A stretch of 62,917 nucleotides of DNA, counting the filler. It is 4 parts of 4 records of this genome, joined end to end, with 100 filler letters (N's around TTAATTAATTAA, not from the genome) between each part and the next. Parts side by side here need not be neighbours in the genome. Positions count along the whole stretch, not along the records: positions 1 to 18,470 come from SRR20825006_1736; 3 more parts are not named here. The stretch is one strand, 5' to 3'. The first letter of the stretch is position 1. Every line of letters begins with the position of its first letter. The translations under genes and the position numbers were made by a program. The notes below the pieces were generated by a model, which searched no databases, was not told where the DNA came from, and was given only the letters and a program-made list of their open reading frames with translations. Shown piece after piece: positions 6,792-48,649 of this stretch.

Positions 6792-7628
6792 TTAGCGCAA
6801 GTTAATATTTTTATATTTAAAGTATAGAAGCTTTAGTTGTTTGTCGTACTGATTACGTTTAAAAGAAGGGCCATTGTAGGCACGAGAAAAAGCTTCCCAT
6901 TGGTGATTTTTTAAGTAACCTATTAAATTATTTACCTCCAGAAATTTTCCAAAAGCTTTTAAATGTTCTCTTTCATGGGTTTGCATAGCCTCTACAAAAG
7001 CTGTTATAGATGGATATCCCAAAGATTTGTAATGATATCCCATTATTTGAAATGTTCCCCAAGAGGTTGCTGCGTGGGCACTTTCATAAAAAGCTGCATT
7101 AGCTTCTAGTGTTGCAGCAATTCTTAATCTATTGTATTCTCCTTCGCCACCAACATAATATTTTTTTGTCCACTTCTTGTAAAGTACATGTTTAGTATTT
7201 TCATTAACATACGGGGCTGGATCTATATTTCTTTTTACTAATTCTCTCCAAAAAACATGTCCTTCAAATAGTATTTTAGCTTTACCAGAAAGGAGAAAGC
7301 CTTTTCCGTTACTTTCAATCTCATTTATAGCTTTAACAGTAGCAAGTTCTATCTCAAACTTTTGTGCAAAATTAATTAAGTCTTTTTCAGAAAGTAGTTT
7401 GTCGGTATTATTAAAAAGCTCTCTTTCTATGCTTAATAATTTACTCCAAGTTTTTACTCCTACAATTCCATCTACAACTAAATCATTTTTTTGCTGAAAA
7501 TCTTTTACCGCATTATCGGTATCTTTTCCAAAGTAATTAGAAATATATATGGAGTATCCTAATTTAAAGAGAATTTGTTCTAAGAGATAAACTGCGGGGT
7601 CGGAAGATTTGTATTTGAGGACTTTCAT
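6792..7628 (-). CDS. Peptidoglycan-binding domain + N-acetylmuramidase (DUF3380-like)
   Basis: N-terminal FGKDTDNAVKDFQQKNDLVVDGIVGVKTW PG-binding domain; EIESNG, KILFEGHVF, SWGTFQIMGYHY, YNGP muramidase motifs; ATG at 7628. Confidence 0.88.
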   Translation of the reverse strand: MKVLKYKSSDPAVYLLEQILFKLGYSIYISNYFGKDTDNAVKDFQQKNDLVVDGIVGVKTWSKLLSIERELFNNTDKLLSEKDLINFAQKFEIELATVKAINEIESNGKGFLLSGKAKILFEGHVFWRELVKRNIDPAPYVNENTKHVLYKKWTKKYYVGGEGEYNRLRIAATLEANAAFYESAHAATSWGTFQIMGYHYKSLGYPSITAFVEAMQTHEREHLKAFGKFLEVNNLIGYLKNHQWEAFSRAYNGPSFKRNQYDKQLKLLYFKYKNINLR

Positions 7629-7846
7629 ATATGTTGTTTTTAATGAACACTTTAAGTTACTTATTTTAACTAGTATAATCAAAATAGTTTCTATTTAAAA
7701 ATGTCTTCAATAAGTAACGTTGTGCGAGGTTATAAGTATTTCATCAAAAAAATAAGGAAACCATCGGATATAAACGTTAAAATATATATTTTAGTGGACG
7801 AAAGAAAAATTTTTAACCTAAAACAAATAATTAAACCAACTACAAA

Positions 7847-8233
7847 ATGGCGAAAAAACCAAAAAAGTGTATTACACACAAAAAAGCGATAAAACTACAA
7901 GACAAGTACGCTAAAACTATTGAAAAAGCGCTTAAAAAAGAATTCGGAAAAGAATTTGCTAGTCAGTTTTGGTGGTCTTTAGAAGAGTTAGAAGAGTACA
8001 TTGCATATTTTAAACAAGAAGCAAAAGACAAAGGGTATAAAGACTTGGGGTTACGTTTTTCTTTAGGAAGATATAATGACGACGATAAAGAAGGAAATAT
8101 CTCTGGGTTTATTATGCCTACAGGTGTTAAAGACGTTCCTACTGTTGCAAAAAGCGCCAAAGCAGCTGCACCTGAAATGATTGAAGATGTAGATTCTTAT
8201 AATGATTCATCAATGGGATGGCCTCCTAATTAA
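7847..8233 (+). CDS. Small hypothetical protein, gene 1 of four-gene signalling cassette (copy 1)
   Basis: 128 aa; WWSLEELEEYI, DLGLRF, FIMPT and C-terminal NDSSMGWPPN match motifs in 28398..29105. Confidence 0.8.
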   Translation: MAKKPKKCITHKKAIKLQDKYAKTIEKALKKEFGKEFASQFWWSLEELEEYIAYFKQEAKDKGYKDLGLRFSLGRYNDDDKEGNISGFIMPTGVKDVPTVAKSAKAAAPEMIEDVDSYNDSSMGWPPN

Positions 8234-8256
8234 GTGGAGAAAATTAGTGAAGCTAT

Positions 8257-8976
8257 ATGTTATATTTACGAATTTTAATTTTTCTTTTTATTATAGCTGC
8301 TACTGTTATAGCAAGTATTACCTATAAAAAGTACCGAGATACCCCCAATCGGTACTTTTTGTATTTATTACTATTAACGTTAGGAACAGAATGTATAGGA
8401 TATAGTTATATCTATTTTCATTTTTTTCCTCAAACAACTTTCACCGTTTTTTTTAAGGGAATACTTCCAGAAGTAATTTCAGAACAAAATTATTGGGCAT
8501 TTAATATATTTCGAATAATTACCTTTTATCTTTATTTATACTATTTTTTAAGATTGTTAAAAAAGTTTAAGCATAGGCGGTATATCTATGTTATATTATT
8601 AATTTATACTGTTTTTGTGATATTAGATTTAACTTTAAGGAGTGAAGGTTTCTTTTCTAAAAGCTTAATGTGGGTTCGTATTTCAGGGACTTTATCGATC
8701 TTATTGGCTACCACCTTTTATTTTAATGAGATTTTTGATTCCGATAAAATTTTAAACATCTATAAAGAACTTTCTTTTTGGCTTATAATAGGCTCTCTTT
8801 TTTATTATTTAGTAACAGTACCTATAACTATTTTCACTAGGCTTTTTTACAATTTCCAAGGAATTTATGTTTCTATATTACTGCTTTCTAACATAGTGCT
8901 TTATGGCTGCTTTATTATTGGTTTTGTAGTGAATGCAAAAAAAAGTGTTTTAGAAAGGGGAAAAGCCCCCTATTAA
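8257..8976 (+). CDS. Stand-alone ~7-TM membrane protein (putative receptor), cassette copy 1
   Basis: Seven hydrophobic segments by eye; homologous to 29118..29765. Confidence 0.8.
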   Translation: MLYLRILIFLFIIAATVIASITYKKYRDTPNRYFLYLLLLTLGTECIGYSYIYFHFFPQTTFTVFFKGILPEVISEQNYWAFNIFRIITFYLYLYYFLRLLKKFKHRRYIYVILLIYTVFVILDLTLRSEGFFSKSLMWVRISGTLSILLATTFYFNEIFDSDKILNIYKELSFWLIIGSLFYYLVTVPITIFTRLFYNFQGIYVSILLLSNIVLYGCFIIGFVVNAKKSVLERGKAPY

Positions 8977-9073
8977 TGGAAGGTGTAAAATTTAAATTTG
9001 TCAGCAAATGTTTTATTTATAACAATTATTTAATGTTATTTATAAACAGAGAGAGAATCCTAAATTAAACTAT

Positions 9074-9099
9074 AATCAACTACCTCGAGGTAGTTGATT
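9074..9099. repeat. Perfect 26-bp palindrome AATCAACTACCTC|GAGGTAGTTGATT
   Basis: Sequence equals its own reverse complement; intergenic between 7-TM gene and kinase. Confidence 0.9.
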
Positions 9100-9138
9100 T
9101 ATCGAGGAATTAAATATTAGAAAAACTTATCCTAATTA

Positions 9139-9924
9139 ATGGAACACGAAGAGGAAATTGTTGGTTTAATTTTATATGTCAGTTTTATTATAATAATCGT
9201 TGTAATATATGCCACTAAATACTTTTTATCATATCAACAGAAAAAAACACAATTTTTACTAGAAAGAGTTGAGGATAAGCAAAACTATGAAAAGGAGCTT
9301 ACAAAAGCTCAAACAGAAATTCAAGAACAAACCCTTAAAAATATTAGTTGGGAATTGCATGATAATGTTGGCCAATTGCTTTCGGTAGCGAAGATGCAAT
9401 TAAATATGCTACAGAATGATATCTCTCCAGAAAAGCAAAAATTTTACGAAGAAGCCGTTTATGTTCTTGGACAGGGAGTAAGTGAAATAAGACAATTATC
9501 TCATACATTAAATACTGATTTTATTTCTAGAAGGGGCTTAGAAGAATCTTTAAAAATAGAAATTGACCGTTTTAAAAGGCTAAATTTTATTAGTATAAAC
9601 TATACAATTGAAGGCGATTTTTATGCTATTGATAAAAAAGACGAAATTATTATTTTTAGAATCTTTCAAGAGTGTTTTTCTAATGTGGTAAAATATTCTA
9701 AAGCGGCTAACTTGGCAGTGTTATTAAAATATACCCCTTCTTATTTATATGTAAAAGTTGTAGACGATGGTGTTGGTTTTGATGTTGAAGCAGCACAAAA
9801 TGGAACGGGGATTATGAATATGCAGATGCGAGCTAAATTAATTGAAGCAGATTTTTCTATTGAAAGTAAAAAGAATGAAGGAGTTTCTGTAACTTTGGTG
9901 TATCCAACTAAGCCAAAAGAGTAA
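9139..9924 (+). CDS. Histidine kinase, HisKA_3 (NarX/DesK) type, single TM, no sensor domain
   Basis: ELHDNVGQLLS H-box, QECFSNVVKYS N-box, DDGVGF, GTGIMNM. Confidence 0.92.
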   Translation: MEHEEEIVGLILYVSFIIIIVVIYATKYFLSYQQKKTQFLLERVEDKQNYEKELTKAQTEIQEQTLKNISWELHDNVGQLLSVAKMQLNMLQNDISPEKQKFYEEAVYVLGQGVSEIRQLSHTLNTDFISRRGLEESLKIEIDRFKRLNFISINYTIEGDFYAIDKKDEIIIFRIFQECFSNVVKYSKAANLAVLLKYTPSYLYVKVVDDGVGFDVEAAQNGTGIMNMQMRAKLIEADFSIESKKNEGVSVTLVYPTKPKE

Positions 9925-10568
9925 TGAAAAAATATGATATTGCAATTGTAGATGACCATTTGCTATTTGCTAAATCCCTAACTTCCCTAATAGATTCTTT
10001 TGATAAATACCAAGTTTCTTTCCATGCTGTTAACGGTCAAAGTTTAATAAACACAATACAGCATAAACCCATGCCAGATGTAATTTTGATGGATATAAAT
10101 ATGCCAGTTTTGAATGGAGTGGAGACAATGAAGTGGTTGTATAAAAATCATCCAGAACAAAAAGTTATTGCGCTTTCTATGGACGATAGCGAGGAGATTA
10201 TAATTAAAATGTTGTGTAATGGCGCCAAAGGGTATTTGTTAAAAGATATTCACCCAGACACATTGGAAAAAGCTATAGACGATGTTATCCATAAAGGCTT
10301 TTATTACTCAGATAGAATTACTAATGAGTTGTTGGACGCTGTTTTAAAAGAAGAAAATAAAGTGAATGGAGTGGAGCTTAAAGACCGTGAAATACAGTTT
10401 TTAAAATTGGCTTGTACTGAAATGACTTATAAAGAGATTGCTGCTGAAATGTTTTTATCTCCTAAAACAATAGATGGCTATCGAGAAAGTCTTTTTGATA
10501 AACTCCAAGTTAGGAGTCGTATTGGATTAGTACTCTACGGAATTAAAAACAAGTATATTAAATTGTAA
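9924..10568 (+). CDS. NarL/LuxR-family response regulator
   Basis: IVDDH, LMDINMP, GYLLKD, C-terminal HTH TYKEIAAEMFLSPKTIDGYR; TAATG overlap with kinase. Confidence 0.93.
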   Translation: MKKYDIAIVDDHLLFAKSLTSLIDSFDKYQVSFHAVNGQSLINTIQHKPMPDVILMDINMPVLNGVETMKWLYKNHPEQKVIALSMDDSEEIIIKMLCNGAKGYLLKDIHPDTLEKAIDDVIHKGFYYSDRITNELLDAVLKEENKVNGVELKDREIQFLKLACTEMTYKEIAAEMFLSPKTIDGYRESLFDKLQVRSRIGLVLYGIKNKYIKL

Positions 10569-10889: not shown

Positions 10890-12788
10890 TTAATTTTTAT
10901 AATACTCTAATAATTCTTTCAATTTATCGGTAGAATCTTCAAGTCCCCCTTCACGATTTCTAAGCAACCAAGTTTTCTTTTGATTTTCTATAATTGGCGC
11001 GAGTTCTTCCGCTAGTTTTTCTTTTTCTACTTCCGGAATGTTTTCCGTGGCATATCCTTTTGCTTTTAATCGAGCTTCTCCTAAATGAGCTCCATGTAAT
11101 GCAAGTTTGGCAGCCTGTTTTGTTTCTGCAATTACAATGGCAGCATCCTCAGAAGTTGGTTTCCCTTTATCAAGAATAGCTAAAGCGTTATTAATCTCAT
11201 TTTCTGCGGCTTCCAATCCTTTTATGGTTAGGTGTTTTGTTTGGTAGTGCCCTTTCATAGTCCATTTAAACCTTCGGAGCATTAAGTGGAAAGCATTGGC
11301 ATTTCCTGCAGGAATATCTGCTTTTAGATAAGCATCACCTAGCATTAAAATAGCTTTTCCTGTATTGGCTGTTTCGTCTTTAAACACATAATGATTTAAA
11401 TGAAAAGCTAAGTTATCAACAGATTTTTCTGAATAATTCCAAGAATAAGAAGCGCCAAGAAGCAGTGGAGCATAGGTAACAGATAATGGTTGAAAATGAC
11501 CAAAATCTCCCCAATTTGTGTTTAAAAAACCTTTTGCATTATTTTTTTGCCCTTCAATTGCAGCATTCTTAAGGTTTTCAAAGGCATTGGTGTTTCTTCC
11601 TATTTCAGAACGCCATGTAGAGGTTCCTGGGCACACATAAAATTCTAAACCTGCATTTTTAAACTTTGGTAAGTTTTCATCAAAAGGGTAGGTGGCATCA
11701 TATCCCCAAACTACCGCAGTCATATTTTTAGGAATTTCACTTATTAATTCTGGATGATTTAAAATAATATCTCCCCAAAACTGAGCTAATTTTCCTTGCT
11801 TATTAACTTCTTCATTGAGTTTAGTGAGGTAGTTTAAATATACGTGTCCTTTTCCAAGCTTTTCACATTCTTCTTTAGACTTTCCTAAACAAAGCTCTAC
11901 CGTTTCATCTCCGCCAATATTAAAATACTTACTCGAAAAATTTGGAAGTAATTCTTCATACAAACTCTTCATTAATTCAAAAGAAGCAGGGTCAGTCGGA
12001 TTTAAACTAGTGCGTTTTCGTTTTCCCCAAACAGTTTCACAATCTTCAGGACATTCAGCTAAATCTAAATATTCATCATGCTTTAACCAGTTTTCCATAT
12101 GCCCAAACGAATTTTGATTCGGCACTAAATCAATATGTCTTTCTCGACAATAAGCATCGAGGAGTTTAATTTCTTCCGCAGTAAACGGACTCGCATTTTT
12201 CCATACTTCCTCATGGTTTTTGTAGGCAAAGGTATGCTCAATATAAAGTTGTAATTCGTTTTGTTTCCATTCGGCTAACTTATCAATAAGTTGATAAAGT
12301 GTTTCCATAGTTGGCACTTTGTCTCTACTAACATCCAACATAACGCCTCTTCTTTCAAAATTTGGCCAATCTGTAATTTCTATACAAGGAAGCGATTTCC
12401 CTTCGGATATAGCATACGAAAGGAGTTGAGAAAGGGTTTGTTTAGCATAAAATAGTCCGGCTAAATTTTGCCCTGTAACTTGCAGCGTGTCTGTAGTTAT
12501 TTTTAAACGATATCCTTGAGGCTTTAACTGTAAAGAATCGATACTAAAATTGAGATGTAATTTTGAAAAACCAATCTTTTCTGCAATATCCATAGACCCA
12601 ATAAAATCCATGTTTGTAGTAATAGTAAGGAGTTTTTCAAGCTGACTAGCATTTGTACTTGTTAAAGAAACGCAAGAATCTAAAACTGTAATTTCTTGTG
12701 GCGGATTGATAAAGTATTTAGAGAAATCCTGAGAAAACCCATTAAAAACGGTAAAGGAAAGGAGAAGACTTAAAAAAATGCTTTTCAT
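10890..12788 (-). CDS. Secreted GH20-family glycoside hydrolase (beta-N-acetylhexosaminidase-like)
   Basis: Signal peptide; DWPNFERRGVMLDVSR, NSFGHM, FNIGGDE catalytic D-E pair. Confidence 0.85.
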   Translation of the reverse strand: MKSIFLSLLLSFTVFNGFSQDFSKYFINPPQEITVLDSCVSLTSTNASQLEKLLTITTNMDFIGSMDIAEKIGFSKLHLNFSIDSLQLKPQGYRLKITTDTLQVTGQNLAGLFYAKQTLSQLLSYAISEGKSLPCIEITDWPNFERRGVMLDVSRDKVPTMETLYQLIDKLAEWKQNELQLYIEHTFAYKNHEEVWKNASPFTAEEIKLLDAYCRERHIDLVPNQNSFGHMENWLKHDEYLDLAECPEDCETVWGKRKRTSLNPTDPASFELMKSLYEELLPNFSSKYFNIGGDETVELCLGKSKEECEKLGKGHVYLNYLTKLNEEVNKQGKLAQFWGDIILNHPELISEIPKNMTAVVWGYDATYPFDENLPKFKNAGLEFYVCPGTSTWRSEIGRNTNAFENLKNAAIEGQKNNAKGFLNTNWGDFGHFQPLSVTYAPLLLGASYSWNYSEKSVDNLAFHLNHYVFKDETANTGKAILMLGDAYLKADIPAGNANAFHLMLRRFKWTMKGHYQTKHLTIKGLEAAENEINNALAILDKGKPTSEDAAIVIAETKQAAKLALHGAHLGEARLKAKGYATENIPEVEKEKLAEELAPIIENQKKTWLLRNREGGLEDSTDKLKELLEYYKN

Positions 12789-18470: not shown

Positions 18471-18570
18471 NNNNNNNNNNNNNNNNNNNNNNNNNNNNNN
18501 NNNNNNNNNNNNNNTTAATTAATTAANNNNNNNNNNNNNNNNNNNNNNNNNNNNNNNNNNNNNNNNNNNN
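18471..18570. other. Artificial contig linker
   Basis: N44-TTAATTAATTAA-N44; identical to the other two linkers. Confidence 0.97.
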
Positions 18571-41225: not shown

Positions 41226-41325
41226 NNNNNNNNNNNNNNNNNNNNNNNNNNNNNNNNNNNNNNNNNNNNTTAATTAATTAANNNNNNNNNNNNNNNNNNN
41301 NNNNNNNNNNNNNNNNNNNNNNNNN
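41226..41325. other. Artificial contig linker
   Basis: N run with central TTAATTAATTAA. Confidence 0.97.
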
Positions 41326-48549: not shown

Positions 48550-48649
48550 NNNNNNNNNNNNNNNNNNNNNNNNNNNNNNNNNNNNNNNNNNNNTTAATTA
48601 ATTAANNNNNNNNNNNNNNNNNNNNNNNNNNNNNNNNNNNNNNNNNNNN
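48550..48649. other. Artificial contig linker
   Basis: N run with central TTAATTAATTAA. Confidence 0.97.

Follow-up and report, generated by a model that had tools for sequence, protein, structure and literature searches.

A stretch of 62,917 nucleotides, filler included (hereafter the window, meaning the whole of the DNA that was analysed), carries two loci that are paralogous copies of a widespread, unnamed and uncharacterised signalling cassette of Bacteroidota. Each copy encodes a small protein that we call g1, a polytopic membrane protein that we call g2, a histidine kinase (HK) of the HisKA_3 type and a response regulator (RR) of the NarL/FixJ type. The gene content and domain content of the cassette, its conservation, and the architecture of its kinase, which has a single transmembrane (TM) helix and no input domain, are matters of direct observation. 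We think it somewhat probable that this sensor-less one-TM kinase relies on dedicated partners, g2 acting as its membrane co-sensor and g1 as an accessory modulator.

Two copies of a four-gene cassette

The window consists of four contigs with N spacers at 18471-18570, 41226-41325, and 48550-48649, and the features of the two cassette copies are as follows.

7847-8233, plus strand: g1 of copy 1, an open reading frame (ORF) of 128 aa with an alpha-alpha-beta-hairpin core and the C-terminal tail N-x6-PP-N
8257-8976, plus strand: g2 of copy 1, an ORF of 239 aa, a seven-helix membrane protein with predicted N-terminus out and C-terminus in
9074-9099, no strand assigned: perfect palindrome of 26 bp inside the 162-nt g2-HK spacer of copy 1
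9139-9924, plus strand: histidine kinase of copy 1, 261 aa, with an N-terminal TM helix, coiled linker, HisKA_3 and HATPase_c
9924-10568, plus strand: response regulator of copy 1, 214 aa, NarL/FixJ-type, with REC and a GerE helix-turn-helix
28398-29105, plus strand: g1 of copy 2, an ORF of 235 aa, hydrophobic segment at the N-terminus (signal or anchor), tail Q-N-H-G-G-L-Y-P-P
29118-29765, plus strand: g2 of copy 2, an ORF of 215 aa, multi-TM, of the same family as copy 1 g2
29744-30526, plus strand: histidine kinase of copy 2, 260 aa, with one TM, HisKA_3 and HATPase_c
30523-31164, plus strand: response regulator of copy 2, 213 aa, NarL/FixJ-type (REC and GerE)

An earlier note on this DNA had described four co-oriented genes that recur on a different contig despite strong divergence, and that description is accurate: both copies (copy 1, 7847-10568; copy 2, 28398-31164) have the order g1-g2-HK-RR, and each gene product of one copy matches its counterpart in the other by BLASTP (g1, 27% over 63 aa, E 7e-4; g2, 31% over 72 aa, E 3e-5; kinase, 30%, E 7e-32; regulator, 40%, E 4e-66). 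Because the copies lie on separate contigs joined by N, their mutual distance has no meaning. In copy 1 the start of the regulator overlaps the stop of the kinase by 1 nt; in copy 2 the kinase and g2 ORFs overlap by 22 nt, and the regulator and kinase by 4 nt. The nearest of the genomes searched, G001, has 31% of the window's sampled words in common with it and carries copy 1 at 99% identity, together with a third, diverged copy (contig 2, locus L005) in which a DDE_Tnp_1 transposase gene (L005:5437-6315) lies between g1 and g2. The g1 of this third copy, a lipoprotein, shares the core motifs and has the tail N-E-G-E-M-A-P-P-P.

The cassette is widespread and its gene order is conserved

Run against 1.84 billion cluster representatives, a g2 profile matched 5866 proteins at a threshold of E<=1e-3, of which 2005 also reach E<=1e-10; the top 150 of the 5866 are without exception stand-alone proteins of 152-253 aa. 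Of 301 genomes from the same family, taken at one per genus, the profile matched 191, which often carry 2-5 copies, and of 401 genomes sampled across the phylum it matched 61; in this phylum sample g2 was frequent in some families (19/29, 15/21, 6/7, and 3/3) and not found in others (0/87, 0/61). Named relatives come from Galbibacter, Olleya, Aquimarina, Flaviramulus, Lacinutrix, Dokdonia, and Flavobacterium, and because of these genera the family appears to be Flavobacteriaceae.

Linkage was assessed at 80 g2-centred loci, reduced to 79 by removal of one duplicate, in which ORFs were scored with g1, g2, kinase, and regulator profiles. The order g1-g2-HK-RR was found in 42 and g1-g2-HK in 14, the rest being variants with duplicated g1 or g2. 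Overall g1 adjoins g2 in 75/79, while a kinase lies in the flank of 72/79 and a regulator in the flank of 51/79, the last two counts being lower bounds since most flanks span merely 1.5 kb. Seen from g1, all 13 g1 matches in five genomes lie beside a g2, 12 of them directly adjacent and one split from it by a transposase gene. The earlier note held that it would be refuted if g1 and g2 were not generally linked to kinase-regulator pairs, and these counts do not bear out such a refutation for the kinase. Genomes carry several diverged g1/g2 pairs each, arrays in tandem (g1-g2-g1-g2 or g1-g2-g2-g2) exist, and in the neighbourhoods of g2 loci no processing enzyme or exporter forms part of the cassette.

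It could be argued that adjacency is no more than inherited gene order, and that g1 and g2 serve an unrelated membrane process. We infer, rather than observe, the dependence of the kinase on g2; 7 of the 79 loci have no kinase within the fetched flank; and at L104, one of the distant loci considered below, g1-like and g2 genes are present and no kinase adjoins them. Nevertheless, a lack of any shared function strikes us as very improbable, because several families, and at least two classes of the phylum, retain the gene order despite protein identities of 20-30%, multiple paralogues per genome, and an exchange of kinase type, and because g1 is never away from g2 in the five genomes.

A one-helix kinase beside a detached membrane protein

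Both kinases are of the HisKA_3 type by Pfam (HisKA_3, 33.0 bits in copy 1 and 40.4 bits in copy 2, cut-off 24; HATPase_c, 33.3 and 45.1 bits, cut-off 26.4), and both regulators are of the NarL/FixJ type (Response_reg, 82.5 and 79.2 bits; GerE, 44.1 and 53.0 bits; all above curated cut-offs). The nearest NCBIfam models are MctS, UhpB, LiaS, and NarQ for the kinases and MctR and NarL for the regulators, in every case far below the equivalog cut-offs.

A hydropathy script places one TM helix ahead of the H-box of each kinase (residue 72 of the copy 1 protein, residue 71 of the copy 2 protein), and Pfam finds no domain in that interval, so that only the TM helix and a coiled linker precede the H-box; the kinase is thus one-TM and without an input domain, as had been claimed. 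Exactly one TM helix precedes the H-box in 84 of 86 HisKA_3 kinases adjoining g2 (median H-box position 76), and the remaining two are over-extended upstream ORF calls. Of the 86 pairs, 75 have overlapping g2 and kinase ORFs, a count somewhat inflated because ORFs were taken from the most upstream start, and this overlap suggests co-translation in fixed proportion. Both counts fit the proposal that a detached 7-TM protein stands beside a sensor-less kinase.

g2 is predicted to have a receptor-like arrangement of seven helices

In a 41-sequence alignment of g2, F174 and P189 are invariant and L38, L166, F219, and F223 nearly so, whereas no invariant residue is of a catalytic or protease-like type; in a 51-sequence alignment of g1 (copy-1 numbering), G68, R70, Y72, Y76, P91, T92, N119, and P126 are each conserved in at least 90%. 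The motifs that the earlier note had picked out in the two proteins are therefore family features and not chance, those of g1 coinciding with the near-invariant positions. None of the 41 g2 members has a Pfam family, and searches of NCBIfam and of PDB sequence profiles with g2 gave no match.

The AlphaFold2 model of copy 1 g2 consists of seven membrane-length helices (mean predicted local distance difference test score (pLDDT) 93.9, predicted template modelling score 0.88), with further short helices in two loops, the second outer one and the cytoplasmic TM5-TM6 one; by alignment, copy 2 is without the long second outer loop of copy 1. Counts of lysine and arginine put the N-terminus outside and the conserved loops and C-terminus in the cytoplasm. 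On this predicted topology the conserved cytoplasmic loops comprise a K-Y-K-x-T motif, a K-K loop, and an S-D-x-I-L amphipathic stretch, and most conserved stretches of g2 fall in predicted cytoplasmic loops, beside the point where the kinase linker exits.

Foldseek returned nothing for g2 at E<=1e-3, the best match being a bitter-taste G-protein-coupled receptor (GPCR) at E 0.065. Among 48,161 chains compared by VIA-align, the top 50 consist entirely of 7-TM receptors, rhodopsins, and designed GPCR-like folds (Z 9.7-11.7, root-mean-square deviation about 4-5 A over about 200 residues). Since helical bundles with Z below about 13 may reflect merely a common arrangement, we call the arrangement of g2 GPCR-like and make no claim of kinship. 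Judged from its invariant residues, the placing of its conserved stretches, and its modelled fold, g2 looks like a receptor or scaffold rather than an enzyme.

g1 is a small protein with a predicted fold, a conserved tail, and variable predicted localisation

Neither copy of g1 matches Pfam or NCBIfam, none of 31 g1 members shares any Pfam family, and PDB sequence profiles gave only two chance-level matches (E 0.15 and 0.74). The source names seen among g1 relatives are all "hypothetical protein", including those of the closest relatives of copy 2 g1, which are 35-59% identical to it. The AlphaFold2 model of copy 1 g1 (mean pLDDT 82.5) has a core of two helices plus a long beta hairpin, to which the tail, after a disordered linker, returns by way of short strands (residues 111-120, mean pLDDT 88). 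No structural relatives were found by Foldseek (best E 0.33) or VIA-align (best Z 4.0). A fold like the ATP-binding domain of kinases was considered because several low-Z VIA-align rows pointed to it; all of these were tied with unrelated rows, and we therefore assign no fold to g1.

The tail is the most widely conserved feature of g1, reading N-x-G-x3-PP in Flavobacteriaceae with C-P-P variants in distant lineages, and is preceded by a variable low-complexity linker. The protein occurs as a lipoprotein, as an N-terminally anchored form, and in a form without a hydrophobic N-terminus: among 91 g1/g2 pairs, g1 has a hydrophobic N-terminal segment in 55 and none in 36, copy 1 g1, which also has no export signal, being one of the 36. 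At L010:2246-3354 and L014:1022-2778 two g1 genes in tandem, only one of which encodes a signal or lipobox, precede a single g2 and kinase.

These properties bear directly on the model put forward in the earlier note, in which g1 or its tail is a secreted signal read by g2, quorum-sensing-like and with a layout like those of agr and comQXPA. A tail that is conserved more widely than the rest of the protein and is set behind a variable linker, a receptor-like fold for g2, and the several diverged g1/g2 pairs and tandem arrays per genome, which would suit private ligand-receptor pairs, are all what such a model would expect. We nonetheless regard it as improbable: i) about a third of g1 proteins, including that of copy 1, have no export signal; ii) the exported forms carry lipoboxes or uncleaved anchors, and so should stay on the producing cell rather than diffuse; iii) AlphaFold2 docks the tail on the core of g1 itself (pLDDT about 88); and iv) the cassette supplies neither a processing enzyme nor an exporter, and g2 has no protease-like invariant residues.

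g1 and g2 follow the kinase

No regulator was found in 12 g1-g2-HK loci whose sequence runs on for at least 2.6 kb past the kinase (L038, L039, L041, L043-L046, L049, L051, L052, L054, and L055). In this subfamily g1 is TM-anchored and its tail mostly reads G-Y-P-Q rather than PP, and the three loci with listed flanks (L038, L051, L054) have similar housekeeping neighbours. Because 12 loci keep g1-g2-HK without a regulator, g1 and g2 appear to follow the kinase and not the regulator.

A distant set of 20 lower-scoring g2 loci from other families leads in the same direction. The one-TM HisKA_3 kinase is kept beside g2 in 13 of the 20, and the ORF upstream of g2 is g1-like in 18 (9 by the g1 profile, 12 by a C-P-P ending seen by eye, 3 by both). 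Outside the window's class, in the same phylum, the three kinases checked by Pfam (L099, L102, L106) are all one-TM proteins of PAS, HisKA, and HATPase_c; at these loci g2 adjoins the PAS kinase, the upstream ORF ends C-P-P and weakly matches the g1 profile in two of the three, and the regulators of L102 and L106, both of which were checked, consist of REC and GerE. At L100 and L105 long one-TM ORFs overlap g2 (seen by eye). Since the PAS/HisKA loci keep a g1-like ORF together with g2, the pair seems to travel with a one-TM kinase of any class.

Candidate operators, expression, and g1 and g2 as possible outputs

The main rival to g2 as co-sensor is that g1 and g2 are regulated effectors: the one-TM kinase would itself sense a perturbation of membrane or envelope, and the regulator would mainly induce its own operon and so raise g1 and g2. 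Such arrangements have precedents, since liaIH sits before liaGFSR as an induced output and BceAB-type modules are sensor and output at once.

The position of g1 and g2, promoter-proximal in 75/79 loci, is as expected for effectors, and so is a candidate operator. Relatives carry the 14-mer GGGGAAAAACACCC about 77-155 nt ahead of g1 (L008:649-662, with equivalent positions in L011, L015, L016, L033, and L083). It occurs exactly once in each of five genomes of 3.1-4.6 Mb, always upstream of g1 and in the orientation of the operon; as a candidate operator it would serve the cassette's own regulator, and a single site per genome fits a private operator and a self-contained regulon. Degenerate forms are present in L005, L009, L012, and L017, and in the g2-HK spacer of L013. 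The element is absent upstream of copy 1, however, and copy 2 has only a degenerate look-alike upstream, at 28290.

A looser pattern, GGG-N5-9-CCC, precedes g1 in 27/79 loci, against 0.054 occurrences per 250 nt elsewhere in the same loci, which are mostly coding. As a general operator it was rejected: many examples are flanked by A-runs and T-runs and may be ordinary small terminators, and only the exact 14-mer is genome-unique, so no operator is claimed for it. The palindrome at 9074-9099 occurs once in the window, was matched in 0 of 100 shuffles, and is present in the 99%-identical G001 locus and absent from two more distant orthologous spacers. Scans of copy 1 gave 13 sigma-70 promoter-like sites against 15.9 expected, with a consensus unsuited to Bacteroidota, and one terminator-like site against 1.4 expected; Rfam has no match within the cassette itself.

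The window stretch occurs in marine DNA and RNA libraries. RNA-library contigs, which may contain DNA and so give only a weak hint of expression, cover g1 of copy 1 in 4/4 metatranscriptome runs, which is also a weak hint in favour of g1 as an output; one of them (8155-8313) spans the g1-g2 junction, and part of the regulator is covered in two runs. No such contig covers 8328-9887, which holds most of g2 and the kinase, a gap that is uninformative on expression.

Against g1 and g2 as outputs, the two are kept with the kinase in the 12 loci that have no adjacent regulator, and are kept again when the class of kinase is exchanged, as expected of kinase partners and not of regulon members. The overlap of g2 and kinase ORFs in 75/86 pairs and the lack of an intact GGGGAAAAACACCC before either window copy count against it as well. 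We consider it unlikely that output is the whole of their role, while noting that an output role and a co-sensor role are not mutually exclusive. Of the signalling roles considered here for g1 and g2, a diffusible signal is the least likely.

Comparison with known systems

PADLOC defence models gave no match to the cassette, and literature searches, with supplementary files outside their reach, found no description of it. The closest parallel is SaePQRS of Staphylococcus aureus, in which, according to PMC5083920, one operon encodes a lipoprotein, a polytopic membrane protein, a sensor-less kinase, and a regulator, and the two helpers lie upstream and modulate the kinase, as we propose for g1 and g2. 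The lipoprotein SaeP and the 4-TM protein SaeQ form a ternary complex with SaeS that turns on its phosphatase activity, and SaeS is an intramembrane kinase with two TM helices and a HAMP domain (PMC5083920); accessory proteins that modulate kinases have been reviewed (PMC12691602), with UhpB/UhpC among the references of that review.

The resemblance is incomplete. SaeQ has four TM helices and g2 seven; SaeS has two and a HAMP domain, whereas the cassette kinase is a one-TM HisKA_3 protein; the order here is helpers-HK-RR; and a third of g1 proteins are without export. As to a lipoprotein in the position of SaeP, many g1 relatives have lipoboxes, copy 2 has a hydrophobic segment, and copy 1 has no signal; as to a single operon, one RNA-library contig bridges g1 and g2 of copy 1. 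Pfam scans of 31 g1 and 41 g2 proteins turned up no family that these might have in common with SaeP and SaeQ. The remark in the earlier note that it knew of no characterised example holds for homology, there being no Pfam, NCBIfam, or PADLOC family, and does not hold for logic, of which SaePQ-SaeS is an example.

In LiaFSR and VraTSR the membrane protein LiaF controls the HisKA_3 kinase LiaS, which acts with a NarL-type regulator. A sensor-less HisKA_3 kinase, a NarL-type regulator, and an upstream membrane protein are also features of the cassette, and LiaS is among the best NCBIfam matches of both window kinases (E 5.6e-22 and 5.2e-28, well short of the family cut-off). LiaF and g2 nevertheless have no detectable common family, the Lia system belongs to Firmicutes rather than Bacteroidota and has no g1 component, and its kinase has two TM helices in place of one. 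UhpC is a polytopic membrane sensor, homologous to 12-TM transporters, that signals to the many-TM HisKA_3 kinase UhpB, with UhpA as NarL-type regulator; there, as proposed here for g2, a detached polytopic membrane protein serves as the receptor of a HisKA_3 kinase, and UhpB is the second-best NCBIfam match of the copy 1 kinase. In contrast, the candidate receptor here, g2, belongs to no known family and is a 7-TM bundle, and the cassette kinase has a single TM helix.

Intramembrane-sensing histidine kinases have two TM helices joined by a short outer linker and no input domain. The window kinases and their 86 relatives (by the median H-box position given above) likewise leave no room for an input domain, and differ in that 84 of the 86 beside g2 have one TM helix. 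In agr, AgrB is a membrane endopeptidase with catalytic His and Cys, and AgrD is a short propeptide. The agr and comQXPA loci have the same four-gene layout of small protein, membrane protein, kinase, and regulator; they are unlike the cassette in that the only invariant residues of g2 are F174 and P189, neither of them protease-like, that g1 is a folded protein of 120-250 aa, often lipid-anchored or cytoplasmic, that the kinase has one TM helix in place of a polytopic receptor domain, and that neither g1 nor g2 has a Pfam match.

Seven-helix bundles are established as kinase input modules when fused to the kinase: in LytS-type sensor kinases such as BtsS, an N-terminus-out seven-helix bundle has this role (PMC10653868). 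In these proteins and in 7TMR-DISM proteins the 7-TM domain is fused to the kinase, whereas g2 is a separate gene in every case seen, and none of 41 g2 members matches the 7TMR-DISM or 5TMR-LYT Pfam models at E<=0.1. By analogy, the best-supported account of the cassette is a logic like that of SaePQ-SaeS, LiaF-LiaS, or UhpC-UhpB, and not that of a diffusible quorum signal.

A proposed mechanism and what weighs against it

On the co-sensor reading, the seven-helix bundle of g2 would pack against the lone TM helix and juxtamembrane segment of the kinase and act as its membrane input device, and g1, often tethered as a lipoprotein or by an anchor, would modulate the g2-kinase complex. Together g1 and g2 would set the balance of kinase and phosphatase activities, and this balance would in turn determine the phosphorylation level of the NarL-type regulator wherever one is co-encoded. 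Complex prediction for g1 and g2, run without alignments and without controls, gave scores of 0.29 and 0.02 against a mark of 0.34 and speaks neither for nor against binding.

A bolder version, which we hold to be rather doubtful, makes g2 a bacterial GPCR-like tethered-agonist receptor that has the PP tail of g1 as its agonist and feeds two classes of kinase. An envelope or cytoplasmic cue would free the tail from the core of g1; the tail would then insert into the g2 bundle, which would switch the single-helix kinase across the membrane; and the diverged g1/g2 pairs of each genome would be private, insulated ligand-receptor channels.

We wish to stress that several observations count against g2 as a co-sensor with g1 as its modulator. 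The physical contacts and the direction of control are ones that we infer only. A fused g2-kinase, which would have shown the two to act as a unit, was not found (0 of 8000 longer candidates scored, which is weak evidence), and g2 frames in the genome searches are all of 111-290 aa, so that none is fused to a kinase. In copy 1 a gap of 162 nt separates g2 from the kinase, and tight translational coupling is therefore not universal. Finally, the positive-inside bias of g2 is identical in 91/91 pairs although 36/91 g1 proteins have no hydrophobic segment; because the N-termini of g1 differ while the topology of g2 is constant, g1 is predicted to lie on opposite sides of the membrane in different systems, and no single binding model accounts for g1 on both membrane faces.

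Neighbouring genes

Copy 1 is flanked by genes for cell-wall or glycan enzymes, an N-acetylmuramidase with PG_binding_1 (6792-7682, minus strand) and a family-20 glycosyl hydrolase (10890-12788, minus strand). Divergent from copy 2 is a gene for a Cys-rich protein of 415 aa without a Pfam family (26897-28144, minus strand), with a D-x-S-G-S stretch that by eye resembles a von Willebrand A metal site. Rfam places three matches to DUF805b RNA (42-49 bits, gathering score 35.6) at 26846-26885, 28166-28201, and L008:472-506, all on the minus strand, where they precede minus-strand genes of unknown family that are divergent from g1 of copy 2 or of a relative. In relatives the gene divergent from g1 (L005:7463-8320, plus strand; L008:2-451, minus strand; also L020, L068, and L086) is 39-74% identical among at least four genomes and encodes a protein that is acidic at its N-terminus, contains one hydrophobic stretch rich in Gly and Ala and another stretch rich in Arg, and has no Pfam family; it is a possible member of the regulon.

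Significance

How signals enter the two-component systems of Bacteroidota is poorly understood, and kinases that have no sensor domain prompt one to ask what they respond to. For a large set of such kinases the cassette offers a concrete, testable answer in the form of two dedicated partner families, unnamed in Pfam and NCBIfam, one of them a receptor-like seven-helix protein found in about two thirds of the genomes sampled from the same family, and also in further lineages of the phylum. What is new is the partner families and the architecture; the type of logic, a kinase helped by membrane partners, is known. With Flavobacterium among the named relatives, a genetically workable host may exist. 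Defining the g1 and g2 families would give names to thousands of "hypothetical proteins" and would flag a new class of kinase co-sensor, and the prediction that one and the same g1 domain lies on different membrane faces in different systems could point to an unusual way of controlling kinases.

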